A DNA stretch of 28,862 nt from a virus (IMGVR_UViG_3300009515_000001); one strand, 5' to 3'. Positions 1-28,862 are shown, counted from the first letter of the stretch. Notes: generated by a model not told the origin, from the sequence alone. A program made the numbers and translations.

Positions 1-74
1 GTGAAGAAGATGCTTTGAAAGTTTTACATAAAGAAGGCTTAGTGATAAGACGAATAGTGGAGGATAAAGAATGA
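1..74 (+). CDS. 3' end of a truncated hypothetical gene (...EEDALKVLHKEGLVIRRIVEDKE*)
   Basis: Open frame from base 3 to TGA 72-74; the stop overlaps the ATG at 71 (ATGA coupling). Confidence 0.6.
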   Translation, partial: EEDALKVLHKEGLVIRRIVEDKE

Positions 75-211
75 GAACTGAAAAAGAAGTTTTAGAACAG
101 ATTAAGCATTTTGAAAAAATTATTGCAAAAACTGAAAACAAACTATCTAGAGAATACATGAAGTTAGTGGCAAGAAAACAGGCTTTGGAATGGGTGATTG
201 ATGTTGAATGA
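71..211 (+). CDS. 46-aa helical hypothetical protein, not in ORF track (MRTEKEVLEQIKHFEK...EWVIDVE)
   Basis: Translated by hand; ATGA overlap with the upstream stop; codon style matches neighbours. Confidence 0.7.
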   Translation: MRTEKEVLEQIKHFEKIIAKTENKLSREYMKLVARKQALEWVIDVE

Positions 212-241
212 TGAAACATCTTTCGGAGTTGCAAAAGAAAA

Positions 242-778
242 ATGAGGATTGATGATTATAGAAACAGGCCAAAATATTGCCAGTGTTCAATGTGTTTTCA
301 GTATTACTCATTCAATGAATATCTAAACCTGGAATCAGAATGGATAGATCCAAAGAACAAAAAAAGATATGGTAAACAGGCAATATGCAAGTGTGGTGCC
401 AGGTTTCATAGAGATTTATGGCATATTGAAACATTAAAAGACCAATATCTTATATCAACAGTTCATTTGGTTATTGGTCATACGTCTGTAACAGATTGGA
501 GTGACATTAACACCGATTACTTTTATGAAACGATGATTTTCAAACTGAAAAACAGAACAAATGATGGGGATAGAAAGGCATTAGACTTTCAAATGAGATA
601 CAAAACAAAGGAAGAAGCAATCAAAGGTCACAAGGATACCGTTGACAGACTTGAAAACATTTTGTTAGATCCAACAAAATACCCAATGGCAATAATCCCA
701 ATGTTTTGTAATGCTTTTGAAGCTGCAAACGATCAAAGAAAAACAATACAATCAGATGTAAAGGAGAGATTGAAATGA
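242..778 (+). CDS. Hypothetical protein with N-terminal Cys-rich (Zn-binding) region and a C-terminal motif common in viral hypothetical proteins
   Basis: CQCSMC and CKCG motifs. ISTVHL..GH...FYETMIF...RYKTKEEAIKGH resembles a widespread phage family of unknown function (recognised from memory). Confidence 0.75.
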   Translation: MRIDDYRNRPKYCQCSMCFQYYSFNEYLNLESEWIDPKNKKRYGKQAICKCGARFHRDLWHIETLKDQYLISTVHLVIGHTSVTDWSDINTDYFYETMIFKLKNRTNDGDRKALDFQMRYKTKEEAIKGHKDTVDRLENILLDPTKYPMAIIPMFCNAFEAANDQRKTIQSDVKERLK

Positions 779-3372: not shown

Positions 3373-3396
3373 AGTATCAACAAAGTGCAACAACTG

Positions 3397-3404
3397 TTTA
3401 TATA
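3397..3404 (+). promoter_or_regulatory. Archaeal TATA box for a leaderless gene at 3426
   Basis: TTTATATA at -29 to -22 from ATG 3426. Confidence 0.6.
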
Positions 3405-4705: not shown

Positions 4706-4869
4706 TGGCTGAACCAATGGTAGTATTTCTTCAAATTGTATTCGGATTGTTAGTGTTTGCATTGGTAGGTATTGTTTGGTTTACAATTTACCAGTTCACG
4801 AAACCTAGCTTACAGAAATTTAACAAGGGTTGGCTTCATAAAAAGAAAACTGGGGCGAAAACATTATGA
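4705..4869 (+). CDS. 54-aa single-pass membrane microprotein, not in ORF track (MAEPMVVFLQIVFGLLVFALVGIVWFTIYQF...)
   Basis: Hydrophobic helix followed by a basic tail; TAATG and ATGA overlaps at its two ends. Confidence 0.75.
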   Translation: MAEPMVVFLQIVFGLLVFALVGIVWFTIYQFTKPSLQKFNKGWLHKKKTGAKTL

Positions 4870-7800
4870 AAAAAAAGAAAGATAAGAAGGTAGAAAAGAT
4901 TACTAAGGATATTAGATCTGGAAATGTTAAATCACAAAAGTGTGATGGTTGCCAGCAGAAATTTATCTTTCTAAGTCCTTCCGATTCAGGAAGAGATCTT
5001 TGTTTTAATTGTTTTTCCAATCAAGAAAGCACATTTGAAGCCATGAAAATGTCATCAAAGATGGGTGAATACCAAACTGAACTTTGGACCAATGCTTTAC
5101 CAGACAACTATGAAGAGATTGTAAAGAACAGGGCAATCAACAGGGAATTAATTTTTTCCGATATAAACAAAGGTGATTCAAGATTAATAATAGATCATAT
5201 ATTAGATAAAATAAAAGAAGGAATTGGAAGAAAGTTTCAATCAGGTAACAACTTAACTGAAAAAGATTATGATGATGTTTATGAAAATTGTATGAAAATT
5301 TGGGATGAGTATCCAGACATTCCACCAGGAATAAGAACAAAAATGATGAATATTATCAAAGAAGAATTTAATTTCTACAAGGAAGCACATAACACACATC
5401 TTAAAGGAGAACAAAAAGAAAGAGAGAGATTACTAAACGTTCTGAAGGATAAGATCAAGCCAGAATTTTACAAAAAAATAGAAAAGATAATGGAGATGTG
5501 GATCGAAGATAGGAAAGAACCACTATCAGAAATTGCTGATGAGCAGATATTATCTGTAGCTGATGGTGCCATTCACAATGTAGAAAAACATAAGGAAATG
5601 CCAAATGGTTACTGTAAAATCTGTGATGAGTATTATAATAGCGGTTCAATCAAAACAAAACTTTCAGTAGCACTAGAAATTATAGATGAATCAATCAGTT
5701 TGTTTTCAAGAAAAAGAAAGCAGTTTTACGAATCACAAAAAAAGGAAGGAATAGACGAAGCCCAAACCCAAGAAGATTATCAGAATGAAGTATCAAAATA
5801 CTCTATTGATCTAAAGAAAAACTTTCAAAACACAAGTCAAGAAAAAGTAGATGAGTTCATACAAAAACTGAAAGACGAAAACAACAGGATCAAAGAAGAT
5901 TACAGAAAGGAACGAGAAAGAAAAAAACAGGAAATAACAATGAAATCTTGGAACGAAGCAAGATCATACATAAGAAAACAAAACCTATTCACACAGACTG
6001 ATTTTGAGAACTTTTCCAAGTCAGGTGATTTTCCAGAAGATATGCACCCAACACCAAACTTGTTTTACAAAGAATGGAAACAACTCAAAAGTAAAACACT
6101 TTCAGAACAGTATAAGGAATTTCTAGGTTTTGAAGGAAGAACATACAACTTTAGAAAAGATCCAAAGGCATACAAAAGACAAACTACAAAACAAATATTC
6201 CAAGAACTTCAAGAAAGATTCGATCATTATTGCAGTTTAACTCCAGGATTTTTGGTAACACAGTTCAAAAATGCAGGGTTGTTCCACCATAGAGATCCTG
6301 GTATTCGTGCATTTGTTAGACAGTTTATTGAAACTGAAAAGACACCAGAAGGAAAAAAAGAACTATACGAAGCACTATCAAGAACAATTTTCAACTTACA
6401 GGTAGGTCATTTCCCAAAAGGTGAAGTGGATCTAACACCACTATCTGAAAAAGAAAAAACATATCTAGACAGAAAGCAATCTCCAGTAAAAAAAGTATCG
6501 CCATTACTAGAAAAAATTCAGATATTTTCAGTTAAAAATATTATTCAAAACGCAAGAGAGGTTATTCCAATTACAAAAGATACAAGGCTTTGGAATCTTC
6601 ATGTAGAGATCATAAAGAATATGATCTTCAAACAATTATTTGATCCAAAAAGAGAATTAACTGAAATTGAACACATGATTCAAGAAAAGAAAAACGGTAA
6701 TCCGTTCCATGATGAAGTCATGTCTAGGTTTTGGGATGAGTACAATGGATTAAAATCAATAAAATTCTGGAAGAATGATTACAGTTTCAAGGTTGCAGGA
6801 CAGTTAAAAATGCCAACACTAAACCAGCTTTATACAGCCTTCAAGATGAGAAAGATTAATGGGTTCTGTAATTTTTCAGATCCAGGAACTGGAAAAACTA
6901 ACGCTGCATACTTGGCTACTAGAAATCCAGAAATAAGAAGAGTGCTAATAATTGCACCATTTAACATAACAAAACAATGGGTATCAGCGTTGGAAAATAT
7001 CTATCCTCACTCATTCATATCAATAGGAAAAGAACCATTCAAGAATTGGGCAAAAGGCGATTATGACAAATATTACCATGTAATCAACTATGAAAAATTT
7101 GCAAGAGATCGTGGTAAATTGGTAAACGAATTAGCAAATTTCGATATTGATTTTGTAATAATTGACGAATCACATCACACCAAAGTAAGAAATGAATCAT
7201 CAATTTCCCATACAAGAATCAATATTGAAAAACTTCTTGACAGGTTAAGAAGCCAGAACAGAAAGCTCAAATGCCTAATGCTATCTGCAACGCCAGTTAT
7301 AAACAACGTACAAGAGGGAAAATCACTCTTAGAAATGGTGACAGGAACAAAATATCCAGACCTAAAAACAGTAAACAATCTAGGAAATGCAACTGAACTT
7401 CATTCAGAATTTATCCCATATTCAATAAGATATGAGAAAACATACGAGGATATAGATCAGCAAGGTAAAGACAAACCAATTAAAGTGAGTGCAACCATTC
7501 CAGAATTTCTAAAACCAGAAGAGAAAAGAAAGCTATCATGGATGGAGTTAGAACAGATATGCACAAAGGCAAGAATACCAGAAATAGTAAAAAAACTAAA
7601 AAAGAAAACGATCATCTACACAGATTATGTCGGTGGCAATCCTAAACTTGGTTTACCAATATTAAAGCAACTGAAAAATGCTGTTGAGAATGAGGGATTT
7701 TCAGTTGGATTCTTTACTGGTGAAGAGATAGAACCAGGTGTTGGTGGCAAGGGCGGTCTAGAAGATTGGTCCAATTGTAAAATAATTGATGGGAAAAAGA

Positions 7801-8225
7801 TACCATTCAATCCATTTGTAAATGGTAACTTGGAAGTTTTAATCGCTTCAAGTTCTATTGCAGAAGGCATTGATGAATTGCAGTATGTTTGTAACAATAT
7901 TATTTTCAACGGTTTGGTTTGGACATTTGCTGACTTTAAACAAATAATTGGCAGGTTAGTAAGACAAGGACAGAAAAGCAATACAGTACTAATAAGTTTA
8001 ATTCTTGCAACATTAAACAGCTATGAATATGATGAAAAGATCAAACTAAACAGGTTAGAGTTAAAGAAAATACTTGGTAATTGTGTATTAGATGGAACAC
8101 TTCCTGACCTAGCAAAGCTACCAAACACAAAAAAAGAGTATAGTAAAATGATGAAAACAATTCTAAATGAAAACGAATCAATAATCAAAGTTCCAATAAA
8201 GGAGAAACAGGATGAAAGAACATAG
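4866..8225 (+). CDS. Large SF2 helicase/ATPase (SNF2-like) with N-terminal zinc finger and an integrase-repeat-like unit
   Basis: Walker A SDPGTGKT, motif Ia IIAP, Walker B IIDESH, motif III SATP, motif V SSSIAEGID, motif VI QIIGRLVRQGQ. N-terminal CDGC..CFNC. SWNEARSYIRKQNL...FPEDMHPTPNLFYKEWK unit. Confidence 0.9.
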   Translation: MKKKKDKKVEKITKDIRSGNVKSQKCDGCQQKFIFLSPSDSGRDLCFNCFSNQESTFEAMKMSSKMGEYQTELWTNALPDNYEEIVKNRAINRELIFSDINKGDSRLIIDHILDKIKEGIGRKFQSGNNLTEKDYDDVYENCMKIWDEYPDIPPGIRTKMMNIIKEEFNFYKEAHNTHLKGEQKERERLLNVLKDKIKPEFYKKIEKIMEMWIEDRKEPLSEIADEQILSVADGAIHNVEKHKEMPNGYCKICDEYYNSGSIKTKLSVALEIIDESISLFSRKRKQFYESQKKEGIDEAQTQEDYQNEVSKYSIDLKKNFQNTSQEKVDEFIQKLKDENNRIKEDYRKERERKKQEITMKSWNEARSYIRKQNLFTQTDFENFSKSGDFPEDMHPTPNLFYKEWKQLKSKTLSEQYKEFLGFEGRTYNFRKDPKAYKRQTTKQIFQELQERFDHYCSLTPGFLVTQFKNAGLFHHRDPGIRAFVRQFIETEKTPEGKKELYEALSRTIFNLQVGHFPKGEVDLTPLSEKEKTYLDRKQSPVKKVSPLLEKIQIFSVKNIIQNAREVIPITKDTRLWNLHVEIIKNMIFKQLFDPKRELTEIEHMIQEKKNGNPFHDEVMSRFWDEYNGLKSIKFWKNDYSFKVAGQLKMPTLNQLYTAFKMRKINGFCNFSDPGTGKTNAAYLATRNPEIRRVLIIAPFNITKQWVSALENIYPHSFISIGKEPFKNWAKGDYDKYYHVINYEKFARDRGKLVNELANFDIDFVIIDESHHTKVRNESSISHTRINIEKLLDRLRSQNRKLKCLMLSATPVINNVQEGKSLLEMVTGTKYPDLKTVNNLGNATELHSEFIPYSIRYEKTYEDIDQQGKDKPIKVSATIPEFLKPEEKRKLSWMELEQICTKARIPEIVKKLKKKTIIYTDYVGGNPKLGLPILKQLKNAVENEGFSVGFFTGEEIEPGVGGKGGLEDWSNCKIIDGKKIPFNPFVNGNLEVLIASSSIAEGIDELQYVCNNIIFNGLVWTFADFKQIIGRLVRQGQKSNTVLISLILATLNSYEYDEKIKLNRLELKKILGNCVLDGTLPDLAKLPNTKKEYSKMMKTILNENESIIKVPIKEKQDERT

Positions 8226-9505: not shown

Positions 9506-9585
9506 ACCAAATCGATATTGAGGAATTACTTGATTACAGGGCTGAAAAAGCTTATGTAAAAAGAATCAGGAGAGAATCAATTTGA
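9502..9585 (+). CDS. 27-aa microprotein, not in ORF track (MNQIDIEELLDYRAEKAYVKRIRRESI)
   Basis: ATGA and TTGA overlaps at its two ends. Confidence 0.55.
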   Translation: MNQIDIEELLDYRAEKAYVKRIRRESI

Positions 9586-9908
9586 TTGATCTAAAAGATT
9601 ATTCAAAGTTCAATGATTCAGTTGACAAGTATCCTGATTCAGTAAAACCAGTAATATACATTCTGGGGCTTGTAGCCGAACTAGGGGAGTTTTGCAACAA
9701 ATACAAGAAGGTTTTTCGAGATCATGGTGGTCAGTTAGATCCAAGACAGAAGGATTATGGGCTGGAACTTGGTGATATTGGCTGGTATTTTGAACGACTA
9801 TCTACATCAATAGGTTTTGATCTAGAAGAAATTTTTGAAATGAATCGAGAAAAATTGGAATCCAGGAAACAAAGAGGCAAGATTCATGGAGAAGGAGATC
9901 ACAGATGA
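9582..9908 (+). CDS. mazG: MazG-like nucleotide pyrophosphohydrolase
   Basis: LGLVAELGEFCNKYKKVFRD...ELGDIGWY...LEEIFEMNREKLESRKQRGKIHGEGDHR matches the single-domain viral MazG-like family (ExxE...ELGD..WY; N..KL..R..RG...G.GD.R). Confidence 0.92.
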   Translation: MIDLKDYSKFNDSVDKYPDSVKPVIYILGLVAELGEFCNKYKKVFRDHGGQLDPRQKDYGLELGDIGWYFERLSTSIGFDLEEIFEMNREKLESRKQRGKIHGEGDHR

Positions 9909-10621: not shown

Positions 10622-11232
10622 TGATCCGAAACTTTTTTGAAAAGATAAAGGAAACAAAGAAGGTAGCAACTGAAAAGAATGTTCACAACTGGTATAACTG
10701 CGTATTTCATAGCGTTATACTCATAATGATCACAAGCATGATTCTTTCATTATATACAATTCATCTATTTGGAATTAATTTAGACACAACTATTGGAGAA
10801 TTAATACTGACATTTCAACCTGGTATATTCCTACCGTTATTTTATTCAATTACACTATCATACCTTTTTTTAGAAAAATTAATCGTATTACACATTCTAG
10901 CATTTGCAAAGTTCAACAAGTTAATCTTCAAGGGATGGGAAAAGTTTGACATGTGGTATTATCGAAAATATAGAAAGACATCACCATTAACTGAAAATCT
11001 TGCAAAGGTTCAGCGTAAGATTTCAAAATATCAGTCAACAAAACGCAGAAGAAGAATGTTGTTGGTGGGAGTGATAATATTCGTGGTGCTACTCAACTTC
11101 ACAATACGTCTGCCATACATCATGGAATCATTGGAAAATACTGAACAAACTGAAATAGAAAACGATTCAACTGATAATATTGAACAAACAAAAGAACCTG
11201 AACGTAAAATCATAGTAAGAGGAGCTGGATAA
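10615..11232 (+). CDS. Multi-pass membrane protein
   Basis: About three hydrophobic segments and a basic loop. Confidence 0.75.
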   Translation: MLMIRNFFEKIKETKKVATEKNVHNWYNCVFHSVILIMITSMILSLYTIHLFGINLDTTIGELILTFQPGIFLPLFYSITLSYLFLEKLIVLHILAFAKFNKLIFKGWEKFDMWYYRKYRKTSPLTENLAKVQRKISKYQSTKRRRRMLLVGVIIFVVLLNFTIRLPYIMESLENTEQTEIENDSTDNIEQTKEPERKIIVRGAG

Positions 11233-11456
11233 TGAAAAGAACATGTAGAGGTATATGTGATCGTTATTCAAGTCCTAAACATAACAATCGTGGGCTTTAT
11301 ACAACAGGACACAAACGTTGTAACACATGTGAGATCTATTTGAAAACTGACAAAACACAATGTCCATGTTGTAATAATTTCCTTAGAAACAGACCACGAA
11401 ATGGTCACTATAAAGAGGCATTTAGAAAGTACGTAAAACAGGAGGTGAAAGCGTGA
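11232..11456 (+). CDS. Cys-rich zinc-binding protein resembling a conserved Nitrososphaeria small-protein family (paralog 1)
   Basis: CRGICDRY...Y.TGHKRCNTCEIY...CPCCNNFLRNRPRN; family recalled from thaumarchaeal genomes, needs a BLAST check. Confidence 0.8.
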   Translation: MKRTCRGICDRYSSPKHNNRGLYTTGHKRCNTCEIYLKTDKTQCPCCNNFLRNRPRNGHYKEAFRKYVKQEVKA

Positions 11457-11674
11457 ACCAGAAGCAAATGTTAATCTCTTTTCTAAACTCAAAGAAGAAG
11501 CCACAAACATTAGATGATATAATGCAGTTTGTTGAAAAAGAAATGCAAGTTCCAAGATCAACAATAAGAGCTAGACTTTCAGAAATGAGAAAGAAACCAG
11601 TAAAGATAGACGATAAATTATTCCTAGCAGTACACAACGGAGATGGATGGGTAGGTAAAGTTGCCGAACTGTAA
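11453..11674 (+). CDS. Winged helix-turn-helix DNA-binding protein
   Basis: PQTLDDIMQFVEKEMQVPRSTIRARLSEM followed by short beta strands. Confidence 0.7.
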   Translation: MNQKQMLISFLNSKKKPQTLDDIMQFVEKEMQVPRSTIRARLSEMRKKPVKIDDKLFLAVHNGDGWVGKVAEL

Positions 11675-11867
11675 AGGAATCTGTAACAGATTCAAGGTTG
11701 GTAAACCTAATAGAAGAGGTAGCTACTATGAGTACGCAAAGTATTGTAGAGTTTGTTCAGTGTGGTTTGATAAAAAATATACTGATTGTCCATGCTGTAA
11801 ATCTAAACTTAAATCTAGGCCATCTTATAGTAAGCAAAAGAGAAGGCTTGGTATGGTGAAAGCATAA
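11661..11867 (+). CDS. Cys-rich zinc-binding protein (paralog 2 of 11232)
   Basis: CKGICNRF...Y...KYCRVCSVW...CPCCKSKLKSRP aligns by eye with the 11232 protein. Confidence 0.8.
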   Translation: MPNCKGICNRFKVGKPNRRGSYYEYAKYCRVCSVWFDKKYTDCPCCKSKLKSRPSYSKQKRRLGMVKA

Positions 11868-16073: not shown

Positions 16074-16415
16074 ATGCCATTAATGGAAGCGGGATTGTTC
16101 GGGTTACTGGCTGGTGGAGCCTTTATCTTACTGATTATTTCATTCAAGTTTGGTGCCTTATTGAAGGTAATTTCAGCAGTATTATTCTTTTCAGTTGCAT
16201 TGATCTTGATGGCTGGTTACGAGGTAGCATATACTTCAGAAACGGTAGGAACACCATCATGTCCTGCTAATGATCCCTGTATAACCCAGCATTATCTAAT
16301 AAGGGAAGATCCAGGTACTGGAGAAACATCAGGTGAGTGGGCTGCATGGTTCTTTATTCTACTAGGAATACTTAGCTCAATGCTCTTTATTGTGGAGATG
16401 TTTGTAACAAAGTAG
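16074..16415 (+). CDS. Three-TM small membrane protein (candidate minor virion protein)
   Basis: Three hydrophobic helices; loop with CPANDPC. Confidence 0.75.
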   Translation: MPLMEAGLFGLLAGGAFILLIISFKFGALLKVISAVLFFSVALILMAGYEVAYTSETVGTPSCPANDPCITQHYLIREDPGTGETSGEWAAWFFILLGILSSMLFIVEMFVTK

Positions 16416-16425: not shown

Positions 16426-16902
16426 ATGGTTTTATTCTTTAAACTTTGGTTTTTCTTCTTCATTGGCAACTTGATCTTCGGATCAGCTATCAGCATACTT
16501 GCAAGTGATCCATTGATTGATTGTCCTGCTTCTGAAACTGGTTGTGAAAACCCAAATACCACGTTTTTTGCTACGCTTGGCGTTAGTGCAACCAATGTTA
16601 CAGCTCCTGATACTGAATCATTTTATGGTTCACAGTTCTCACCTGAAAATGAAACAGGTGACACTGTTCCAGATTCAGTAGGGTTTTGGGAATCAATAGA
16701 CTTTCTAAACATTGGTGAGTTACTTAGGTTCTTGAGCTTTGTAAACCCACTTTATACATTTGATGTTATGGAAGATATGTTCTTATCAGTAGGAATAGAG
16801 GAAGATTCACTATCAACCATCTTTATTGCATTAAAATCAATCTTCTTTGCACTTGGAATACTTGGATTCCTCTTTGTAATCTTCAAGATAGATGTCATTT
16901 AA
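16426..16902 (+). CDS. Membrane protein with a glycosylated loop (candidate minor virion protein)
   Basis: N- and C-terminal TMs; CPASETGC loop; NTT, NVT and NET sequons. Confidence 0.75.
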   Translation: MVLFFKLWFFFFIGNLIFGSAISILASDPLIDCPASETGCENPNTTFFATLGVSATNVTAPDTESFYGSQFSPENETGDTVPDSVGFWESIDFLNIGELLRFLSFVNPLYTFDVMEDMFLSVGIEEDSLSTIFIALKSIFFALGILGFLFVIFKIDVI

Positions 16903-17881
16903 TCTGAAACATCTTCTTTAAGTTCAGTTTATCATAGTTTGCAACCAACATTCCTGCCATTACACCGATTATAACAACCAAAGGTAGCATACGATAAGGC
17001 CAAATAGAGTATGTACTCATTCCTGTTAGTATTGGAGAGGTCAAAATCATACCCAAAACAAGCAACAAGACAGGTTTAGAGTTCTTTATCTTCTTCCAAT
17101 TCATCAAAAGAAGAAACCCAGTAACAACTAGAATCAACAAAGTCGATTGATCATCAGCAAAACCCTGCCACATCCATGAAACAAAGCCACCAGCAAACTT
17201 TCTTAAATGAATTTCCTGTATCACTACCAAGCCCCCAAGAGCTGGAACTGAAAATTGCTTGATACTGAAAATCAGTACTACTCCTATACCAGCTAGAACT
17301 GAAAAAATATAGAAAGCTTTTCTGTTGTAAAAAAACTCAAAGATAAGAATGGCAGGAAGAAACAGAATTGTTATTGCTTTCGCTGGAACGGAAAAGATGT
17401 ACGGAACAACTGAAACATACCACCTTTTTGTTGTTGATAAATATAATGCAAAAATAAAAAGTAAAGCCCAAAAGCTAGGATATGTAACACTGGTGTCGTA
17501 AGTGTAAAATATACTGCTTTGTAGTACAACACCAACAGATACGATTCCTGCAAGTCTTTTTTCTGCAAGATTAACAGTAAGAAGATAGGTAACAACTAAC
17601 AACATAACACTTGAAGCTAGGACTAAAACCTTATAGTTTTGAAATAGTTGATAAGATGTTTCTAACAGAAGAAAGTGAAGTGAGTGCCTGAAATCATTTT
17701 CAATCCAGTCCACATCCCAAACATAAAGTCTTGACATTCTGCGATCATAATCAAAACAAGAACCAACACCTTCACATTCATCAAGCCATAATTCATTAAA
17801 TGAAATTCCGATATACATGCCGATAATAACGATCATGAACACAAAAGTCCAGTCTTTAGATAGATCAAAACCTTCGGACAT
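16895..17881 (-). CDS. Polytopic membrane protein, probable GT-C-fold (PMT/ArnT-like) glycosyltransferase
   Basis: About 9-10 TMs; first TM followed by an acidic loop, then HSLHFLLL...VVTYLL...AGIVS..VL.SSIF...YPSFWALLFIFALYL...K...LFLP...PYRMLP pattern typical of GT-C; own TATA box. Confidence 0.6.
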   Translation of the reverse strand: MSEGFDLSKDWTFVFMIVIIGMYIGISFNELWLDECEGVGSCFDYDRRMSRLYVWDVDWIENDFRHSLHFLLLETSYQLFQNYKVLVLASSVMLLVVTYLLTVNLAEKRLAGIVSVGVVLQSSIFYTYDTSVTYPSFWALLFIFALYLSTTKRWYVSVVPYIFSVPAKAITILFLPAILIFEFFYNRKAFYIFSVLAGIGVVLIFSIKQFSVPALGGLVVIQEIHLRKFAGGFVSWMWQGFADDQSTLLILVVTGFLLLMNWKKIKNSKPVLLLVLGMILTSPILTGMSTYSIWPYRMLPLVVIIGVMAGMLVANYDKLNLKKMFQIK

Positions 17882-18146: not shown

Positions 18147-18377
18147 ATGGTACTATCACTGGGCTTTATCCTAGCCTTCATTGGTGCAGCTGTTGCATTA
18201 CTGATCGGAATTTTGATATTTTCCGAAGTCAGTGATGCCATAATTTGCCCCGTTGGCCAGGGAAATACCGAGTGTGAAAATGCTAAGGACACTGCATGGA
18301 CTGTTATAGGTATATTGCCTGTGGCACTCTTCTTTGCCCTCTTTGCGATTTTTGGAGCCCTCGGTGGGCGTCAATAA
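18147..18377 (+). CDS. Probable major capsid protein of spindle-shaped archaeal virus type (two hydrophobic helices)
   Basis: 76 aa; helix-loop-helix with a ...IGILPVALFFALF second helix like SSV1 VP1/His1-type MCPs. Stand-alone unit with its own TATA box and a hairpin plus oligo-T terminator, as expected for a highly expressed gene. Confidence 0.7.
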   Translation: MVLSLGFILAFIGAAVALLIGILIFSEVSDAIICPVGQGNTECENAKDTAWTVIGILPVALFFALFAIFGALGGRQ

Positions 18378-18638: not shown

Positions 18639-18640
18639 GA

Positions 18641-18698: not shown

Positions 18699-19013
18699 AT
18701 GGCAGTAACAATAATTATAATTGCAACACTTTCAATTATTGCAACTGTCATGGCTGTTCTGGCACTAATGCCTGTCATACAAGATATGGGAACAGATGCT
18801 AGTGGAAGCTGGGATAAACAACAGGAATTAAAGAACATAACATGTAATCCTGCTGATAGTGAGTGCCTGGAACGTCAGATTAATGCAATTCGTTCATTAT
18901 CTGCAAGAGATAAAGCATTTACAGCTATTGTGGCATTACCAATATTCTTGATTGGAGCTATCGCGGCTTGGGCATTTTTGGCTGTAACTCGTAGAGATTT
19001 TGGAGAAGTCTAG
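18699..19013 (+). CDS. Two-helix hydrophobic protein, capsid-protein paralog (VP3-like minor capsid candidate)
   Basis: RDKAFTAIVALPIFL aligns with KDTAWTVIGILPVAL of 18147; CNPADSEC loop parallels CPVGQGNTEC; C-terminal WAFLAVTRRD. Confidence 0.65.
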   Translation: MAVTIIIIATLSIIATVMAVLALMPVIQDMGTDASGSWDKQQELKNITCNPADSECLERQINAIRSLSARDKAFTAIVALPIFLIGAIAAWAFLAVTRRDFGEV

Positions 19014-19022: not shown

Positions 19023-19068
19023 TTATAAATAACCTAGAAAGGTGATCAATGTCAGACAATGTCTGACA
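19023..19068 (+). promoter_or_regulatory. TATA box plus 19-bp palindromic operator over the RHH gene start
   Basis: TTATAAATAACCTA at 19023-19036; TGTCAGACA-A-TGTCTGACA at 19050-19068 is a perfect inverted repeat around one base. Confidence 0.75.
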
Positions 19069-19223
19069 CAAGGAAGAAGCTTCAGCGTAGAGTATCCTTT
19101 AGAATAACTGATCGCCAAGCCAAAGAACTTGATCGAATGATAAAACAAGGAATGAACCCATCAATGCAGTTCAGAACTGCTTTGGAAAAAATGATGCGTG
19201 ATGCCAGGAGAAGAAGATTTTGA
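19059..19223 (+). CDS. 54-aa ribbon-helix-helix transcription regulator, not in ORF track (MSDTRKKLQRRVSFRITDRQAKELDRMIKQGMNPSMQFRTALEKMMRDARRRRF)
   Basis: Alternating strand VSFRI, helix A TDRQAKELDRM, G turn, helix B S..FRTALEKM: canonical CopG/Arc-type pattern. Confidence 0.85.
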   Translation: MSDTRKKLQRRVSFRITDRQAKELDRMIKQGMNPSMQFRTALEKMMRDARRRRF

Positions 19224-19499: not shown

Positions 19500-19751
19500 A
19501 TGGCAGTAGCAATTGTAGTTCTTGCAATCATTTCATTGTTTTCAGTTGGTATTGCGATGTTTACATTTCAACCAGCCATTTACGATCTTGCATATAACAA
19601 CTCATTTTGGGAAGATGCTAACAACGTTGATGTAAGATTACAGGTTCTTAGGGATTCTATCTACGGAGCAACAATAGCTATTCCAGCAATAATGGTAGGC
19701 GTAGTAGCTGTATGGGCTTTGCTGGCTGTATCAAGGAGAGATGATGTCTGA
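19500..19751 (+). CDS. Two-helix hydrophobic protein, paralog of 18699 (start corrected from 19491 to ATG 19500)
   Basis: GAGGTG SD-like motif at 19488-19493; MAVAIVVLAII parallels MAVTIIIIATL; RD...AIPA..G..A.WALLAVSRRD matches the 18699 protein. Confidence 0.75.
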   Translation: MAVAIVVLAIISLFSVGIAMFTFQPAIYDLAYNNSFWEDANNVDVRLQVLRDSIYGATIAIPAIMVGVVAVWALLAVSRRDDV

Positions 19752-22700
19752 TGGGCAAAAAGAGAAGAAAACCATACATGTCAAAACCAGATCCAGAACT
19801 ACGTGAAGTAAAATACATTCTACTTGGGGTTGTAATCGTTTTTCTAGGATACTTTGTACTATTTCCAGTATTATCTGCACCATCTATGTTTCTACTTCCA
19901 GAAGCTTATGCAGAAGATCAGAACATCATAATGCTAGGTGATGTAAATCGGCCACGACAGGGTGGAACTGGAACAACCTGTCCTACAATTACTGGACCAT
20001 CTAGTGCGACAGATGCAGGAACATCAACAATAAGACACTGGCGACAGTCGGATGCAACTGGATGTGAGGTTACAACTTGGACATTTGACTTGGATTCAAC
20101 AACACATGTACTTATTCCATCATACTTTAATGATTTTATAACAGGTCTAAGCTTCATTCATGATCCAACTGGAGTTTCTACAATGGGTTCTGCTTGTAGA
20201 TTGTATGAGGTATCAGAACAGGGAGTAGATCCAAGATTAAACATTACAGCCGCCTATGAGGTTGTAGATGGAAGAAATCAAAACATAGTTGGAAGTTACA
20301 ACAACTGTGATACTGGCGGAACAGCCCCAGAGTGGTTAAGTTCTGGAACTTCGAATTATCTTGATTCAATGGCATTAAACAGCACTTTCTTTTCTTATGG
20401 TATTCAGACATTATCTGACAACAGACAGGTAGCAAGTGATTCAACTCATAATGCCAATACATTTATGAAATTAAGATTCACCAACCCAACAGTTCTAACA
20501 AATACAATGTGGATGATGCAAGAACATCCAAAATTTCCATCTAGTGACATTACTGGTGGTTTCTTTGGAATTGACGATACGACATTTACAATGGATTCAA
20601 ACACATTAGATGATACGGAAATTGGTCAGGTAGTAGTCATCAAAGAATTTAACAAGACAACTGATAGTTTGGATGGTTCAAGTATTAGAATTACAGGTGG
20701 TTTAGTATCACAAACAAGTGCAGCTGATCAGTGGGTTAGAATTGAAGTAAAAGATGGATCTTATGGAACTCAAACCTTAAATTCATTTCCAGAAGATGAA
20801 TATGATACTTATCAAGACGGTGGATCACTTGGAGTGATCCATATTCAACCAACTACAAGTATAGAAACATTTGATATTTCATTTACACCTAATTGGTCAA
20901 ATTCAACAAACGATATAGTAACTGTATTCATAGGTGTAGATGATAACTCTACTGCTGGTTCTACAATTGCAAACATTACATCAGTCGAATGGGATTCAAT
21001 TATAAAATATAATTTTGAGGACATAAATCAATTAAATTTCTATGAAACATCAGTAGAATTATCATCTAATTCAGAGATAAGAGTTGGGGCAAATGACTAT
21101 GATGCAGGTTTTATAAATATGACAAATGTAACTGCTTCTGGATTTAGTCCAAGTACATTACCAACACCATCATCTCCAACTGACGGATTTGCAAATGCGA
21201 CATCGACAACAACAATAGATCTTACCTGGAATCATAATCTATTAAACGTAACAGACTTTGAAATTTCAAGAAACGGAACAAAGCTTACAGATACAAACAA
21301 CATAGATCTAAACTATACAGATACTGGTTTAACGGAGGAAACGCCATACGGATATACAGTATGTGCAATCAACGGTGATGTAAAAGAATCTACTTGTACT
21401 ACAATGGAAGCAGTAACACAAGCAACGCCAATTCCAGATCCAGTTTCAGACTTTGACGCAACCGCATTTGAAACTGGTGTTTTCTTAAACTGGACAAAAC
21501 CATCATCAACACCAGAACTAGACACATATCACATTGAAAGATCATTTAGTTTAAACGGAACATGGCAATTCAGGGAAATATTCCCAGGTTCAGGTGGTGG
21601 TTCAACTATCTGTGGATTTTCTGGAAGTAGCGGACCAAATGATGTTTGGCAAATGAGTTCAACAGGTTCAACAAATTACGGTGCATGTCAAACTTGGATA
21701 AACCTACCAACAGAACTAATCAATAACACAAAGGTTCACATTGATTGGGAAGGTGAAATACTTGGATTCCAAACAGGTACATACACAATTAAAACTGGTT
21801 ATGCTAACCAAGCTGTATTTGGAAATCCATTTACATCATTACCAGTATTAGATAGTTCAGATATTGTTATAGGAACACAAGGGCAACCAACTTTAGACAC
21901 AGGTCTTAATGTAATAGGAACACCAGTAACAAAAAGCATAGTTGTTACAACAGGATTCCCAAGAGAGATCTCCACCTATGAACCATCAGCAGGTGAGTAT
22001 GCAGCAGATACTTCAAATCCATACACTGCATTAGTAATTCAAGTAGAAGATGATATAACAGATGGAGGAGCACCAGCACTTAGAATATTTTCAGTAAATG
22101 TAACAGATGCCACAACTGATGAAACTTTAATGTTTTGGAATTTCACCGAAACTAACAATGCAGGTTTAGATAATAATATAGTATTCAATTACGATTATGG
22201 AACATTTGATGTAGATATTTCAAATACTGAACCAGATGATGCGACAATATTCAATACTTTTGAACCAGTAGTATCAGTAAATAGAGAGCAAGGATGGGAT
22301 GAACAGGGATCAATAACAGAAACATCAAAATCAATAGACTACGGTCCACAAACAAACGAGATCAGATTTAGAGATGATGGAAAAACAGTAATAATTTCAC
22401 ACCCAGTTGCAGGATTTGGAAATCCAATACTAAAACAGTACAACCTAACACAAGCATGGAATCTAACAACAGCAGTATTCTACAAAGATGAACCACTTAA
22501 CGAAATAAACAATATCTTAGATGGAACATTATCTGCATTTGATGTAAAACCAGATGGAACATTGTTGTGGGCTACTGATACAGTATCAGATGAAATATTT
22601 GAGTTTGAAATGACAACACCATGGGACCTATCAACCTTAGACTATACAGGTGGTAATAGCTTCTTTTGTAGAATGACAGGTGAAGATGCAGTTTGTGATA

Positions 22701-25700
22701 AAAGTAGTGCCGACAATATCTTTACACTTAGATTTACAACAGACGGTAGATTCATCATAGCCTTAGATCAAACTGGTGCATTAGGACAGACAGAAGATAA
22801 AATTTACAAATATGCCATGTCAACACCCTACGACATTGAAACATTGTTTGAAAGACCACAGGAATATGATCTGACTTCAGACGCAAATGGTGGTGACAGT
22901 TGGAACAACATGGCATTATCAACAAACGGAACTTTATTGTACTTGGTTTCACAAGAGGGTGGAACTTGTCCACAATCTGACATAGTACAAAGATTTGAGC
23001 TAAATAACCCATTCAACATTACAAGTGCCAATAAAATTGGTTTTGGTAGAAACATTTGTTCAAACATAGACAGCCCAACAGGACTAAACTTCAAACCAGA
23101 TGGAACAATCATGTATGTAACAGGTAGAGATGTATCTGGTGGGGCTTTAGACCATACAGCACAGTTTGCATTACTTGATGTTTCTGAACCTAACTCATAT
23201 TATGATTATGATGTTGAATTAAATACAGACTATAAATATCAAATATTTTCTGAAAACACAAATGGAAACAGTACAGTTACACAAAGTAATAGTGTTTTAA
23301 CAAATGACAAACCAGCACAGGTAACAGGATTAACCGCAGTAAGAAATACACCAACACAGATAGATCTACAATGGGATACAATTCCAGATACTTCAGGTCA
23401 AGGAGATCCAAGCACAGGCGTACTATTACAGGAATATAGAATTTTCAGAAGTGAAAATGGTGGTGCGTTTGAGTTAGTTGGAGTAAATGAAAGACAATCC
23501 CCACCAGCAATTTTCTTCAATGATACATCTGTAAATGCCACATTTTTCTATTCGTATAACGTAGAAGCTTGTAACGAACTTGGTTGTGGAAATAGTTCAT
23601 CATCATTCTTTGTTGCAACATCACCACCAAAACCACAGAACCTAACTGCAACTGCTGATATTGCAGATGTTTTGTTAGAATGGATCGGTAACTCAACAAC
23701 TGATGATGATTATAGAATTGAAAGAGGTAATGCAACAGTAGTCGGTTCATGGACATTAGGAACATCAATTCCTGATGAATATGACGTTTCATATAATATT
23801 GGGGCTGGAATATTTTTATCATCAGATGGACAATACCTATTCTTACCAGATGTACTTAGTGACACTGTAAATAGACATACAATGTCAACTCCATTTGAAA
23901 TAACAACTGCAACATCAACTCAAAACAGTACAGATCTTACTTCTACATTAGGATCAAAAGTATCTCAAATTACAGACATTCATTTTAAACGAGATGGAAA
24001 AACAATGTTTGTTTTAGATAATACGAATACAGACATTTATGAATATAGTTTAGGAACAGCTTGGGATCTTTCAACATTGGCATATAATGCTGAATTTACT
24101 GGATTACCTAGTGGTATGCAAGGATTCTGGTTTACAGAAGATGGTTTGAGAGTTTTTCTTGTTAGATCAACTACTGACCAAGTTTACAAATATAATTTAA
24201 CAAGTGCATGGGATATTTCAACAATAACATTTGCACAGGTAGTTAGTTCAGGAGCTTCAACAGGACCATTTGATATAATGGTTAGACCTGATGGTAAATT
24301 CTTAGGAATTTTAGATATTGGGGCTGGCTTGAATGATTCAATAGACGGATATAACATGACAACTGCATTTGATTTAACAACTTTAGTAGGAGCAGGTGGT
24401 ATGAATGTAGGTCAATCTGGTGCCTATGCTCCTGAACCAAGAAGTATGTTTATACCACCTGATGGAAGGGCGGCATACGTTGACCAAGTAACACCTGATG
24501 ATAAGGCATTTCAATTCAATCTTAATTCAACTCTATTAGATAACTTTTTGCTAGGGGAATTTGAGATCATTGTTCCAAGTTTGGTTGATTCAAATGTAGA
24601 ATTTCTAAGTGATGACTTTACAAAATATCCAGATAATGCAACAGCAGATCTAACATGGATTCCAGAAGTTACAGGATTTGATAGTGCAGATGATGTTGTT
24701 GGAGTAAATGCAACCTTAGATAAAATAATGTTCACAACAAGTACATCATCAGGATCGAATATTTTATTTGATCTCAATGCTTTACTTGGAAAAAATCTAA
24801 CTGATAGTTCTGGTGCTGGTGATTTTAATATGACATGGACTTCCGATTTAACACAACTTGATGGTGATTGTTCAAATCTTTGTGTTACTGGAGCTATGTT
24901 TGTTAACTTAATTGATAGGGATGCTACACAAGGAGGAACACAAACAGGTATCACAACTGGATATTTTTATCAGGGATTAAATCCTTCATTTGAAGATGAT
25001 ATTGCATTATATGTAATGGAAGATCAAGCACCATCACTTGATGAATTTAATGGAAATTGTAATAATCATGGACCTAATCCAAATCCAGAAACATTATTCC
25101 ATCAAATAACAAAAATTGGTAATGATATAAACTATAAAGTAGGAATCGATACAACTTATGGAGAGTGTTCAGTTAGTCATACAACTGTAAAAACACTTGA
25201 CGACATTCAATACTTAACGTTAAGAAGAACAGGAACAGGTTCTTCTAGTAACGATCATGGATTCAGATTTGATGACTTTTCAATATCAACTAACGGAACA
25301 TTAGTAACATTATACCGAGATAAAGACGTAGAACTTGGAACAGCTTATACATATAGAGTAACAGCATTAAACAGCACAATCCCATCAGAACCATCAGAAA
25401 CAGCTTCAGTTCTAACAAACGATTTCCCTGAAATAGTTGAAAATGCACAGGCAGAATTCAATATTCCAACCCAAGTCGATATTCAATGGGATGAGTTAGA
25501 CTTTGATTCTGGAGCTGGAAACCCAACAACAGGATTAAACCTAACAAAATACCAAATTTTCAGGCAAAACGTTACAGCCGCAACACCCTATGAACTAGCT
25601 GGGGAAGTGTTTGCCTCAAGCCCACCACCAAACTTCTTTAACGATACTTCTGCCACATTTCCAAGTGTTTTTAATTACCAAATTTCAGCCTGTAATGCTT

Positions 25701-28700
25701 TAGGTTGTAGTGCAAACTCAACATCTTCTCAAACATTAGTAACTCAAGTTCCAGATCCAGTTGTAAACATGAGTGCAATAGCTGTTAACAATACAGTTTC
25801 ATTGGATTGGGATGATTCAACATTTGCAATAAATTACACAATAACAAGAGGAATTCTTAATGCAAGTCATATTATAATTGCTCAAGGTGTAACAACTTCT
25901 GATTATATTGATACTACAGTATCAACAAATGTAAACTACACATATTCAGCATGGGCTGTAAACAACAATGGAAACGGAACAACTGGATTCTCAAATTCAG
26001 TAATAACTAACGATCTACCAACAGCCCCACAAAACCTGGTAGGCGCTATGGGAATTGTAATTCCTGATCTGGAAGATGTGTTCTTGGATTGGGAACACCC
26101 ATTAGACAACGGAACAGGAGATCCAAGTACAGGTGTTGATATTATCCACTACCAAGTAGAAAGAAAGCAAGGAGTAGGTGCATTTTCATTCTTGGCAAAC
26201 ACATCAAATGCTGTTCCAGAATACGAAGATGAAACCGTAATTTCAGGAGCAAACTACACATACAAAGTACGAGGTATTAACGCATTAGGTTTCAGTCCAT
26301 TCAGTAACACATTCAGTATTATAACAACACCACTAACACCGCCACAAGCCCCAACTGATCTAACAGCAAACACATTAAGTGGAACAGAAATTAAGCTTGA
26401 TTGGTTAGCCCCAGTTTCAGGAGATCCACCAACAGACTATGTTCTTCAACAAAGACATGTAGGATTCGGTGGATTTGTTACACTTGCAACAATTCCAGCC
26501 CCAAGCCTAACATACACATCAACAGGTTTGGTTAGTGGCGACACCTATGATTATAGGGTTAGGGCAGACAACGGAGCTGGTTCAAGTCCGTATTCAAACA
26601 TAGCTACCAACGCAACATTTACAGTTCCAGGCGCACCATTAAACTTGATTGCAAATACAATAAACGATACTGCGATCTTTTTGGACTGGGATGTGCCAAG
26701 CTTCACAAACGGTGGTATAATAAAATATGAGATCGAAAGAGAATCACCAGAAAATGGTGGGTTCAGTAAGATAGCTGAAATTGCAACAACGACAGAATCA
26801 AACTTTACATCAACTGCATACAAGGTTGAAACAAACAACTTTGCAGGAAGCACTTGCCCTACTAACAGAATCGGTCCATCAACACTTTCAGGAGAAATGA
26901 GGGCTTCACCATCAAACAGTGTTTTAGATTGTGAAAGACAGGCATTTGAGTTTGATATATCATCAATCCCAACAGGTGCAATAGTAACAAATGCAACAAT
27001 AGAATATGACGTTACATTAGTAGCAGGGGGACCACCAAGAACCTGTGATTTCAACGACATTCAATTCCAACCATCTGCATATCCAGTAAACTTTACAGGA
27101 GCTTCAAACTTATGGGATGATATAGGAAATGGAACTAGCTTTATTGCAGGAAATACAGATTGTCAAACTATTGCTAATGATTACATAAGAGTATTGCCAG
27201 CAAGTGCTATTGCTGATATACAAGATAATATTGATGGTGCAGAAGGATGGTGGGCATTTGGTGGAAAGCTATCTAGTGAAGTAAGGGTATCAAGCCAAAC
27301 ACATAGAGCAGATACAGGTACTTTCCTATTAACACTTGAAATAATCAATGCAACAACAAGTCCAGATACTGAATATACAGATACAGGTTTAACACCAAAG
27401 ACTGAATATAATTATCGTGTTAATGCAACCAACCTAATAGGTTCTGGACCATACTCTAATGAGGCTAAAGATACAACCTTTGGTGTAGCAGGACCGCCAA
27501 TAAACCTAGCCTTTGATACAAACGGAGTTTCAACTATCACAGTAGAATGGGATGAACCAGTAAATAACTTTGGTTCTGCGGTAACAGGTTATAGAATAGA
27601 CCAAGCACAAGATGTTGGTGGAACATTTGTTACTGTAATTGGCAACACTGGAAACAACGTTGAACCACTTGAAGAAACATTCATCGGGTTGTTGCAACAG
27701 ACAACTTACATTTACAGAATTGCTGCGATCAATGGATTCGGTCTTGGTGACTTTAGTGCAAACCTAACAGCAGGAACATTCATCGGACCATCTGAACCAG
27801 AAAACTTCTTTGCACAGTTTAACGCAACAAAGCCATACAGTGTGTTCTTGTCATGGGAAACACCACTTAGCGATGGCGGTAAGCCAATTCAGGGTTACTT
27901 GGTTGAAAGAAAGAACGAATCAGGAGTGTTTGTTTTGATCGCAAACTTGACAAGTCCATTACTTCTAAACTATACCGATGATTCATTACTCCAGTTAATC
28001 GAACATGAGTATCGAGTTGCGGCATATTCAAACCCAATAGGATCATTTACTAGCGGATCAACTGCAACAGTAGTTCCACCGAACTTCACATCATTTGTTA
28101 TTAATGACTTTAATGTAGTGGGTGATGTATTAGGACAGGCATATACAATAGAGATCAATGACTGTTTCCCTGCATGTGTGTTAACTTCAGCAGATATTGA
28201 AAGAAATGGTATTGTAGAAGCAAACTATCTGGTAGGACAGCCACTCCCATTAGATACGCCACTTAACTTTACAACATTCTTCATAATACCAGTAGCAGGA
28301 TCACATGACATTAACACAACTGCAATAGTTACAAATCCAGGAACAACAGGAGATGATGAGGTCGGAGTTATAACAACAAGTTTCGAGTTCCAAGTGGATA
28401 CAATCTTCTTTAACCATTCAAGAAACACCGCATTTGATGAGCTAAACTTTGAACTTGTTAGACATCCAATTCCCTGGAACGCTGAATGTGAGCTTCGTGG
28501 TGGCAGACCAGCGGTTATAGATACAGTAATACCAGTCTTGCCTTTCGGTGGTACAATTACTTTGCCTGGTTCTATTGCAATAAATCCGTTTGATATTACA
28601 GCAACACTAAGCTTACAGGGAGTTGGTTCTTATGAAAGTCCGCCAACATTTGATGTAGTTCCAAGTAGAAATGCGTATATGGCCTGCTTTGATCCAGAAG

Positions 28701-28862
28701 ATATTCAAATTCTAGCATTTACAAGCTTTGGAACAGGAAACGGAACACTGGCATTAACTGGATTTACTGACCAGTTAGGAACATTCTTGGGAGTTCCAGT
28801 TCCATTCATATTCATAATTATACTTGCGGCAATCTGGACAGGAAGATCAGCTAGCACAGGAA
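19751..28862 (+). CDS. Giant (at least 3037 aa, 3' truncated) virion adhesin/tail glycoprotein: about 11 FN3 domains, two beta-propellers, lectin/CBM-like sandwiches, C-terminal membrane anchor; not in ORF track
   Basis: Translated by hand with no stop from ATG 19751 (TGATG overlap) to the window end. Signal/TM ending LLPEAYA; repeated FN3 motifs (P..P.NL.A...I.L.W...Y.I.R...Y.D..L...Y.Y.V.A.N..G.S..S); F.PDG...W/FD(L/I)ST blades; dozens of N-x-S/T sequons; TM FLGVPVPFIFIIILAAIW at the end. Confidence 0.92.
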   Translation, partial: MGKKRRKPYMSKPDPELREVKYILLGVVIVFLGYFVLFPVLSAPSMFLLPEAYAEDQNIIMLGDVNRPRQGGTGTTCPTITGPSSATDAGTSTIRHWRQSDATGCEVTTWTFDLDSTTHVLIPSYFNDFITGLSFIHDPTGVSTMGSACRLYEVSEQGVDPRLNITAAYEVVDGRNQNIVGSYNNCDTGGTAPEWLSSGTSNYLDSMALNSTFFSYGIQTLSDNRQVASDSTHNANTFMKLRFTNPTVLTNTMWMMQEHPKFPSSDITGGFFGIDDTTFTMDSNTLDDTEIGQVVVIKEFNKTTDSLDGSSIRITGGLVSQTSAADQWVRIEVKDGSYGTQTLNSFPEDEYDTYQDGGSLGVIHIQPTTSIETFDISFTPNWSNSTNDIVTVFIGVDDNSTAGSTIANITSVEWDSIIKYNFEDINQLNFYETSVELSSNSEIRVGANDYDAGFINMTNVTASGFSPSTLPTPSSPTDGFANATSTTTIDLTWNHNLLNVTDFEISRNGTKLTDTNNIDLNYTDTGLTEETPYGYTVCAINGDVKESTCTTMEAVTQATPIPDPVSDFDATAFETGVFLNWTKPSSTPELDTYHIERSFSLNGTWQFREIFPGSGGGSTICGFSGSSGPNDVWQMSSTGSTNYGACQTWINLPTELINNTKVHIDWEGEILGFQTGTYTIKTGYANQAVFGNPFTSLPVLDSSDIVIGTQGQPTLDTGLNVIGTPVTKSIVVTTGFPREISTYEPSAGEYAADTSNPYTALVIQVEDDITDGGAPALRIFSVNVTDATTDETLMFWNFTETNNAGLDNNIVFNYDYGTFDVDISNTEPDDATIFNTFEPVVSVNREQGWDEQGSITETSKSIDYGPQTNEIRFRDDGKTVIISHPVAGFGNPILKQYNLTQAWNLTTAVFYKDEPLNEINNILDGTLSAFDVKPDGTLLWATDTVSDEIFEFEMTTPWDLSTLDYTGGNSFFCRMTGEDAVCDKSSADNIFTLRFTTDGRFIIALDQTGALGQTEDKIYKYAMSTPYDIETLFERPQEYDLTSDANGGDSWNNMALSTNGTLLYLVSQEGGTCPQSDIVQRFELNNPFNITSANKIGFGRNICSNIDSPTGLNFKPDGTIMYVTGRDVSGGALDHTAQFALLDVSEPNSYYDYDVELNTDYKYQIFSENTNGNSTVTQSNSVLTNDKPAQVTGLTAVRNTPTQIDLQWDTIPDTSGQGDPSTGVLLQEYRIFRSENGGAFELVGVNERQSPPAIFFNDTSVNATFFYSYNVEACNELGCGNSSSSFFVATSPPKPQNLTATADIADVLLEWIGNSTTDDDYRIERGNATVVGSWTLGTSIPDEYDVSYNIGAGIFLSSDGQYLFLPDVLSDTVNRHTMSTPFEITTATSTQNSTDLTSTLGSKVSQITDIHFKRDGKTMFVLDNTNTDIYEYSLGTAWDLSTLAYNAEFTGLPSGMQGFWFTEDGLRVFLVRSTTDQVYKYNLTSAWDISTITFAQVVSSGASTGPFDIMVRPDGKFLGILDIGAGLNDSIDGYNMTTAFDLTTLVGAGGMNVGQSGAYAPEPRSMFIPPDGRAAYVDQVTPDDKAFQFNLNSTLLDNFLLGEFEIIVPSLVDSNVEFLSDDFTKYPDNATADLTWIPEVTGFDSADDVVGVNATLDKIMFTTSTSSGSNILFDLNALLGKNLTDSSGAGDFNMTWTSDLTQLDGDCSNLCVTGAMFVNLIDRDATQGGTQTGITTGYFYQGLNPSFEDDIALYVMEDQAPSLDEFNGNCNNHGPNPNPETLFHQITKIGNDINYKVGIDTTYGECSVSHTTVKTLDDIQYLTLRRTGTGSSSNDHGFRFDDFSISTNGTLVTLYRDKDVELGTAYTYRVTALNSTIPSEPSETASVLTNDFPEIVENAQAEFNIPTQVDIQWDELDFDSGAGNPTTGLNLTKYQIFRQNVTAATPYELAGEVFASSPPPNFFNDTSATFPSVFNYQISACNALGCSANSTSSQTLVTQVPDPVVNMSAIAVNNTVSLDWDDSTFAINYTITRGILNASHIIIAQGVTTSDYIDTTVSTNVNYTYSAWAVNNNGNGTTGFSNSVITNDLPTAPQNLVGAMGIVIPDLEDVFLDWEHPLDNGTGDPSTGVDIIHYQVERKQGVGAFSFLANTSNAVPEYEDETVISGANYTYKVRGINALGFSPFSNTFSIITTPLTPPQAPTDLTANTLSGTEIKLDWLAPVSGDPPTDYVLQQRHVGFGGFVTLATIPAPSLTYTSTGLVSGDTYDYRVRADNGAGSSPYSNIATNATFTVPGAPLNLIANTINDTAIFLDWDVPSFTNGGIIKYEIERESPENGGFSKIAEIATTTESNFTSTAYKVETNNFAGSTCPTNRIGPSTLSGEMRASPSNSVLDCERQAFEFDISSIPTGAIVTNATIEYDVTLVAGGPPRTCDFNDIQFQPSAYPVNFTGASNLWDDIGNGTSFIAGNTDCQTIANDYIRVLPASAIADIQDNIDGAEGWWAFGGKLSSEVRVSSQTHRADTGTFLLTLEIINATTSPDTEYTDTGLTPKTEYNYRVNATNLIGSGPYSNEAKDTTFGVAGPPINLAFDTNGVSTITVEWDEPVNNFGSAVTGYRIDQAQDVGGTFVTVIGNTGNNVEPLEETFIGLLQQTTYIYRIAAINGFGLGDFSANLTAGTFIGPSEPENFFAQFNATKPYSVFLSWETPLSDGGKPIQGYLVERKNESGVFVLIANLTSPLLLNYTDDSLLQLIEHEYRVAAYSNPIGSFTSGSTATVVPPNFTSFVINDFNVVGDVLGQAYTIEINDCFPACVLTSADIERNGIVEANYLVGQPLPLDTPLNFTTFFIIPVAGSHDINTTAIVTNPGTTGDDEVGVITTSFEFQVDTIFFNHSRNTAFDELNFELVRHPIPWNAECELRGGRPAVIDTVIPVLPFGGTITLPGSIAINPFDITATLSLQGVGSYESPPTFDVVPSRNAYMACFDPEDIQILAFTSFGTGNGTLALTGFTDQLGTFLGVPVPFIFIIILAAIWTGRSASTG

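Follow-up and report, generated by a model that had tools for sequence, protein, structure and literature searches.

Virion genes of a large archaeal virus, probably of spindle type and distantly related to Nipumfusiviridae

The window analysed here, a stretch of 28,862 nucleotides of viral DNA (IMGVR_UViG_3300009515_000001), encodes small hydrophobic hairpin proteins next to a giant membrane-anchored protein, and a helicase. This raises the question of whether a virion module of spindle type is combined at this locus with a replication module of a different kind, as was proposed in an earlier note on this DNA. Marine nitrification is driven by ammonia-oxidising archaea, to which the virus was assigned and for which very few viruses have become known. 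Our analyses indicate that the window probably comes from a dsDNA archaeal virus with a genome of at least 93 kb, of which it would cover the virion-gene arm and some of the small-gene arm. The virus belongs to an undescribed lineage distantly related to Nipumfusiviridae.

Extent of the genome and its small genes

The window (28.9 kb) is about one third of a larger viral contig of 92,862 bp. In a protein database, the window helicase (100% identity) is assigned to a contig of this length, which equals 28,862 + 64,000, and an identical copy (100%) of the hairpin protein encoded at 18147 belongs to a JGI contig of the same size. The open reading frame of the giant protein (19751) is clipped at the window edge, with ~49 codons missing compared with the ends in relatives. 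The figure of about 29 kb in the earlier note is therefore not the genome size, and since the window is a fraction of the genome, the lack of an enzyme in 29 kb says little. Homologues of the recombinase described below are on contigs of 89,493, 93,009, 95,078 and 95,107 bp, and two of these sizes recur for members of the 18147 cluster. Such contigs suggest genomes of about 90-95 kb, and the related contigs taken together are of 87-95 kb.

The readable DNA consisted of the window, which is 31% of the 92,862-bp contig, and 58 of the 68 kb of a close relative, JABAOF010002213.1, whose hairpin is 96% identical to 18147 and in which 17 window genes are matched in the same order. Over these 58 kb, Pfam annotation of the relative gave only small or mobile-type genes, and an MT-A70 methylase is also present. 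Further genes of the relative, at L070 1674-5806, specify a pyrimidine-dimer glycosylase, Ku and an ATP-dependent DNA ligase domain. At L069 10001-16234, the giant gene is followed by a gene for a 2077-aa basic low-complexity protein whose final residue is Phe, and which resembles in character Nipumfusiviridae ORFs of 1300-1800 aa.

The window is AT-rich (GC 29-41%) and densely coding, and contains ~42 open reading frames, of which the credible ones are all on the plus strand except 16895-17881; neither tRNA genes nor long repeats were found in it. Three independent contigs (the window, L065 and ERZ23486238) start 4.6-4.9 kb upstream of the helicase gene, and the two starts that are comparable, window 1-4866 and L065 1-4645, are non-homologous. 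Either a variable region upstream of the helicase gene breaks the assembly, or the genome ends there.

The genes that start at 14085, 16074, 18147 and 18699 each have a TATA-like box 30-32 nt upstream, and that of 18147 is preserved in most close relatives. A scan of the window for sigma-70 promoters, on the other hand, was at chance level (24 versus 23.5), which upholds the archaeal promoter spacing claimed before. For the microproteins described as Zn-finger, RHH and wHTH types, the outcome was mixed. Several CxxC microproteins are indeed present, including two Zn-finger proteins (11232 and 11661) that flank a wHTH-like gene (11453; together 11232..11867, plus strand), and the HMM of the Zn-finger family had matches in five Nipumfusiviridae genomes (best E 1.5e-12). 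In contrast, profile searches of wHTH 11453 and of the small RHH-like regulator at 19059..19223 (plus strand; 36-67% in close relatives) gave nothing significant, and both names describe a sequence pattern alone. A MazG-like pyrophosphatase is encoded at 9582..9908 (plus strand; PHROG 229, E 7e-25).

Genes of the virion module

The putative major capsid protein (MCP), encoded at 18147..18377 on the plus strand under its own TATA box, is a 76-aa hydrophobic alpha-hairpin with a Cys34-Cys43 loop. It is kept at 93-99% identity in close relatives, and its AF2 model is a hairpin (H5-31/H40-72, pLDDT 85). A second, minor capsid-like hairpin protein (18699..19013, plus strand), also with its own TATA box, has two hydrophobic segments and is conserved in relatives; it is a paralogue (aligned family A4) of a third hairpin protein (19500..19751, plus strand), which is kept at 75-85% in close relatives and about 40% in a sister clade. 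The latter gene immediately precedes the giant gene, the position held by the second hairpin gene in Nipumfusiviridae. The arrangement that had been noticed at the outset, of two-helix hydrophobic genes beside a giant one, was thus confirmed, with 18147, 18699 and 19500 directly before the 19751 frame. Homology of 18147 to the 18699/19500 family was undetectable (hhalign 0.1%), and a set of three paralogues is unproven. Likewise, no sequence match was found between the 18699/19500 family and the second Nipumfusiviridae hairpin (hhalign 0.3%).

Nipumfusiviridae is an ICTV family of putative spindle viruses of Nitrosopumilaceae with genomes of 27-38 kb and no pPolB (PMC10866085, PMC12451623). 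When an HMM built from seven MCPs of this family was searched against the window proteins, 18147 was the best match (E 1.7e-5, 16.5 bits), the runner-up being a membrane protein (E 0.8, 1.5 bits). In the reverse search, with an HMM of the 18147 family against 1128 ORFs, Nipumfusiviridae MCPs accounted for six of the top nine matches, just one of which was at E<0.01. Comparison of the two families by hhalign gave a probability of 31-49%, versus at most 0.6% for other membrane-protein controls, and two loop cysteines are common to both. These results point to a remote but specific homology of 18147 to the Nipumfusiviridae MCP, which is itself a prediction for uncultured viruses. The profile check of 18147 against spindle-virus MCPs, which had been recommended, was therefore positive for this family but not for others: with the hairpins as queries, Pfam, PHROG and PDB-sequence searches gave no match to VP1 or His1 capsid families, and the PF06281 VP1_VP3 HMM did not match any of 33 family members. 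ESM Atlas scores of 18147 (0.85-0.86; Fuselloviridae VP1/VP3 0.86) are leads only. Fold searches with the 18147 model yielded helical hairpins of a generic kind, the best of which (Z 8.1) was unrelated, and no viral match at E<0.001; judged from such models the two-helix hairpin fold is by itself non-specific.

The giant protein (19751..28862, plus strand, running beyond the window) is a membrane-anchored, FN3-repeat, sequon-rich protein and a putative adhesin or tail protein. It has six FN3 matches (E 2e-41), hydrophobic segments at both the N-terminus and the C-terminus, and 71 N-glycosylation sequons where 42 were expected (maximum of 58 in 500 shuffles). An HMM of its C-terminal family ranked three Nipumfusiviridae giants first. 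Residues 50-54 are PEAYA, so that the signal-peptide ending reported earlier is present; as a lineage marker, however, it is unremarkable, because we take it to be an ordinary A-x-A signal-peptidase ending.

Upstream of the hairpin genes, two small membrane proteins complete the module. The HMM of a three-TM protein (16074..16415, plus strand), which was found in 25 loci, placed Nipumfusiviridae counterparts first, weakly (E 0.16-0.2), and that of a two-TM protein (16426..16902, plus strand) had Nipumfusiviridae ORF8-type proteins at ranks 1-4 (E 0.001-0.06). Two N-terminally anchored exported proteins encoded at 14085..16039 (plus strand) are variable among relatives. The sole credible minus-strand gene (16895..17881) encodes a conserved polytopic membrane protein, 38-70% identical across 14 loci; a glycosyltransferase was considered for it but gained no profile support, with no Pfam, PHROG or NCBIfam match. 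In close relatives this antisense multi-TM gene is strongly conserved next to the capsid gene, and in some an HNH-like or other gene is found instead.

Relatives and alternative readings

The sister clade has a hairpin 56-59% identical to 18147, a 19500 homologue and the same recombinase family, together with an ATPase of the Nipumfusiviridae type (E 1e-25 to 1e-37) and the upstream partner of that ATPase. Among 50,697 phage records, the sister-clade ATPase matched only Nipumfusiviridae. Because the clade joins an 18147-like hairpin to the Nipumfusiviridae ATPase, the module is of spindle-virus type, with the reservation that the MCP serving as reference is a predicted one. The spindle-type reading stands as a probable one on this genomic evidence, with the morphology itself inferred from genes. 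The sister clade was seen at loci L027-L051 and L064/L067 (e.g. L035 2657-10620), on contigs of up to ~30 kb, and is apparently uncatalogued too.

The same hairpin subunit could instead build another particle, whether filamentous, bacilliform, large two-tailed or pleomorphic. At ~93 kb, which is ~2.5-3 times the Nipumfusiviridae size, the genome may not fit a small spindle. Hairpin MCPs are also the subunits of rods, in APBV1, and of large tailed spindles, in SMV1 (cited in PMC10866085), and the loops of many paralogues hold large inserts. The order of the genes and their remote homology nevertheless match the small-spindle module, and we regard a different particle as unlikely.

These inserts are a distinctive feature of the lineage. 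In ~50 of 150 homologue clusters of 18147, both helices are kept and ~160-800 extra residues are present in the loop, some of which are LamG-like or BNR-repeat domains; one contig has four insert-bearing hairpin copies. At L001 (1401-2336, 7142-8224, 8226-9290 and 10001-10723) and L024 (15330-17199), near-identical helices hold unrelated inserts of 160-290 aa. The short capsid-like gene is also duplicated or triplicated in tandem (L016 10001-10610, L018 8056-8689, L021 9708-10657 and L039 2013-2627). What is new compared with the known relatives is the size (related contigs of 87-95 kb versus 27-38 kb) and the presence of capsid-like paralogues with whole domains in the hairpin loop.

A second alternative is that the virus is a divergent member of Nipumfusiviridae. 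The likeness to this family (NYM1/NYMAG-47, BK067782-BK067792) extends from the predicted two-Cys hairpin MCP and a second hairpin directly before a membrane-anchored giant to the two small membrane proteins, the Zn-finger family, the similar module order, the lack of pPolB and the predicted Nitrosopumilaceae host. However, in BLASTP comparisons at E 1e-5, only 0-3 of the ~42 window proteins matched any one of seven Nipumfusiviridae genomes, and those that did were Zn fingers and FN3 repeats with 25-40% identity, too small a set for an average identity to mean much, the comparison covering 31% of the contig. Moreover, a size of at least 93 kb lies well outside the 27-38 kb of the family, three short hairpins are present here, with insert-bearing paralogues in the family of the first, and the HTH-tyrosine recombinase of this lineage was undetected in the seven genomes tested. 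A primase-helicase such as that of NYM1 was not seen here, and the ATPase of the spindle type is not beside the virion genes; neither the window nor 58 of the 68 kb of JABAOF010002213.1 yielded it. On present evidence, the lineage is not in Nipumfusiviridae, and membership is quite improbable.

Other spindle viruses are less similar. Thaspiviridae, represented by NSV1 (PMC8491892), also have a small hydrophobic two-helix MCP (81 aa in NSV1) and an ammonia-oxidiser host, which is proposed here. The NSV1 genome, however, is a linear molecule of 27-29 kb bounded by 176-bp inverted terminal repeats, and it encodes pPolB and PCNA; no such feature was seen here. Thaspiviridae are excluded on size, and NSV1 is set apart by its description; that the lineage is distinct from this family, as originally claimed, therefore agrees with a size three times that of NSV1 and with the lack of a visible pPolB. 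Fuselloviridae (SSV1, SSV19) and the nanohaloarchaeal DNSV-1/2 (10.1101/2025.02.15.638363) resemble this lineage in having hairpin capsid proteins in paralogous copies, a gene for a giant adhesin and an integrase of the tyrosine type, but have genomes of ~20 kb and other hosts, and their PF06281 VP1_VP3 family had no significant match here. The ANME-1 Tepeuviridae and Itzamnaviridae (10.1101/2022.07.04.498658), compared by description only, are large predicted spindle viruses with structural and enzymatic arms, the larger ones having an RNA-primed PolB, which was not seen here. Spindle virion modules with varied replication genes are, in general, already known. With regard to size, the largest ANME-1 spindle virus predicted in that study is tepeuvirus PBV144, at 72.6 kb (10.1101/2022.07.04.498658). 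If the genome here does measure at least 93 kb, hairpin-capsid viruses would span a wider range of sizes, and the scaling of their shell could be put to the test. Bicaudaviruses reach ~76 kb.

It was also considered that the contig could be a non-viral integrative or conjugative element, in which the hairpins would be pilin-like (VirB2/CedA-type) and the giant a cell-surface adhesin. The presence of a tyrosine recombinase, the non-specificity of two-helix folds and the lack of any relative in the IMG/VR copy are all compatible with such an element. Nevertheless, a pilin or VirB2-like match of 18147, which the earlier note had named as evidence against its own proposal, was looked for and not obtained: no Pfam pilin family matched among 33 hairpin-family members, and 18147 shows no sign of a class III signal peptide. 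Furthermore, a search for Walker-A proteins, VirB4 included, was negative both for the window and for 58 kb of JABAOF010002213.1 read on the coding strand, and the reciprocal match between 18147 and the Nipumfusiviridae MCP is specific. A non-viral element is thus very improbable. The other findings that had been named as adverse were also sought: HK97 and portal proteins, and likewise terminases, were found neither among the scanned window proteins nor across the 58 kb of JABAOF010002213.1 annotated with Pfam, in which no pPolB was annotated either.

Helicase, recombinase, host and distribution

The SNF2-like SF2 helicase (4866..8225, plus strand; Pfam SNF2-rel E 1.5e-8) is present as described before, with motifs I, II, III and VI intact. 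It is syntenic in two other contigs, one of them L065 (61%), but is missing at the syntenic site and across 58 kb of JABAOF010002213.1, and also from a 24-kb sister-clade contig. Its closest named homologues (36-38%) are mostly from Nitrosopumilus, Nitrososphaeraceae and Nitrosotenuis, many of them fused to Methyltransf_8, and its NCBIfam matches are weak and of the DrmD, DpdE and RapA type. Judging from the contigs compared, the helicase is an accessory gene that is patchy in the lineage, and a role related to restriction-modification or DNA remodelling appears likelier than one in replication.

The claim that neither a PolB nor an integrase is present was correct in part. PolB motifs were found neither in six frames of the window nor in 58 kb of JABAOF010002213.1, and the window itself has no integrase homologue, but the gene of a tyrosine recombinase, P0418, is carried by a 92,862-bp contig from JGI, which from its matching size and source we infer to be the window's own. 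In JABAOF010002213.1, a 465-aa protein with an N-terminal HTH, ~10 kb past the giant gene, is 51% identical to P0418; the ESM Atlas links this homologue to a Tyr-recombinase cluster (score 0.98) and to PF00589 clusters (0.92). All members of the family keep the residues R, R-H, W and Y. The recombinase catalytic domain was missed by Pfam, PHROG and PDB-sequence searches, and the P0418 family had no match in phage records. From its sequence, P0418 appears to be a divergent HTH-tyrosine recombinase, not necessarily of the SSV1 type. A conserved C-terminal Cys/His cluster, possibly a Zn site, was also seen in the family (L069 16756-18153; P0418), which escapes the Pfam, PHROG and NCBIfam integrase models.

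A spindle virus of ~29 kb that has neither PolB nor integrase and replicates by means of the SNF2 helicase, as the window and the helicase kept in synteny in at least two related contigs might have suggested, is already refuted as to genome size and integrase by the 92,862-bp contig and its recombinase, and is hardly tenable otherwise, given a helicase that is missing from a close relative and that resembles Methyltransf_8-linked proteins. The same distribution argues against a different replication module built on the helicase, and since Nipumfusiviridae already do without pPolB, putative PolB-less spindle viruses of ammonia oxidisers are not new.

For the preferred reading, a large spindle-type virus, the following course can be proposed. 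The 18147 hairpin would insert in the host membrane and polymerise into a helical spindle shell, in which the 18699 and 19500 hairpins may serve as minor shell or tip proteins and the giant FN3 glycoprotein as a terminal adhesin, and virions might be extruded without lysis, like those of NSV1. The role of the recombinase would be genome integration or, with a circular genome, the resolution of dimers. Because no polymerase was seen, replication is probably carried out by host enzymes, and the helicase would most likely be a DNA-translocating accessory derived from restriction-modification-like cassettes.

The promoter spacing, an 84% identical 18147 hairpin in a Nitrosopumilaceae bin, the helicase homologues and the link to Nipumfusiviridae make a Nitrosopumilaceae host fairly likely. 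The ammonia-oxidiser host proposed earlier is therefore plausible, but its basis is bin labels and gene sharing. A sister-clade contig was binned with a genome of a class whose genomes are 0.5-1.2 Mb, unlike those of ammonia oxidisers, and bin labels are for this reason unreliable; among 400 genomes of that class, only two weak matches (E 4e-4) were obtained, which are probably due to chance.

The 18147 lineage was found at 51 or more loci in metagenomes, and its proteins form 156 clusters at 50% identity, whereas no relative was found in the IMG/VR copy or among named phages. Being common in metagenomes and yet not found in these collections, the lineage seems to be missed by virus finders. 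The 76-aa 18147 protein is a highly conserved marker with which these viruses could be found and isolated. More broadly, and with slightly less than an even chance of being right, the lineage may be a widespread, uncatalogued family of spindle-type viruses of marine ammonia oxidisers, with genomes of ~90-95 kb, beyond the reported spindle sizes, which would be polymerase-less and integrating and would carry exchangeable lectin-like or beta-propeller inserts in the loops of capsid paralogues. One member of the P0275 cluster came from the Tara sample TARA_R100000781; R1-prefixed Tara samples are presumably of the virus-size fraction, in which case this origin would fit packaging in particles.
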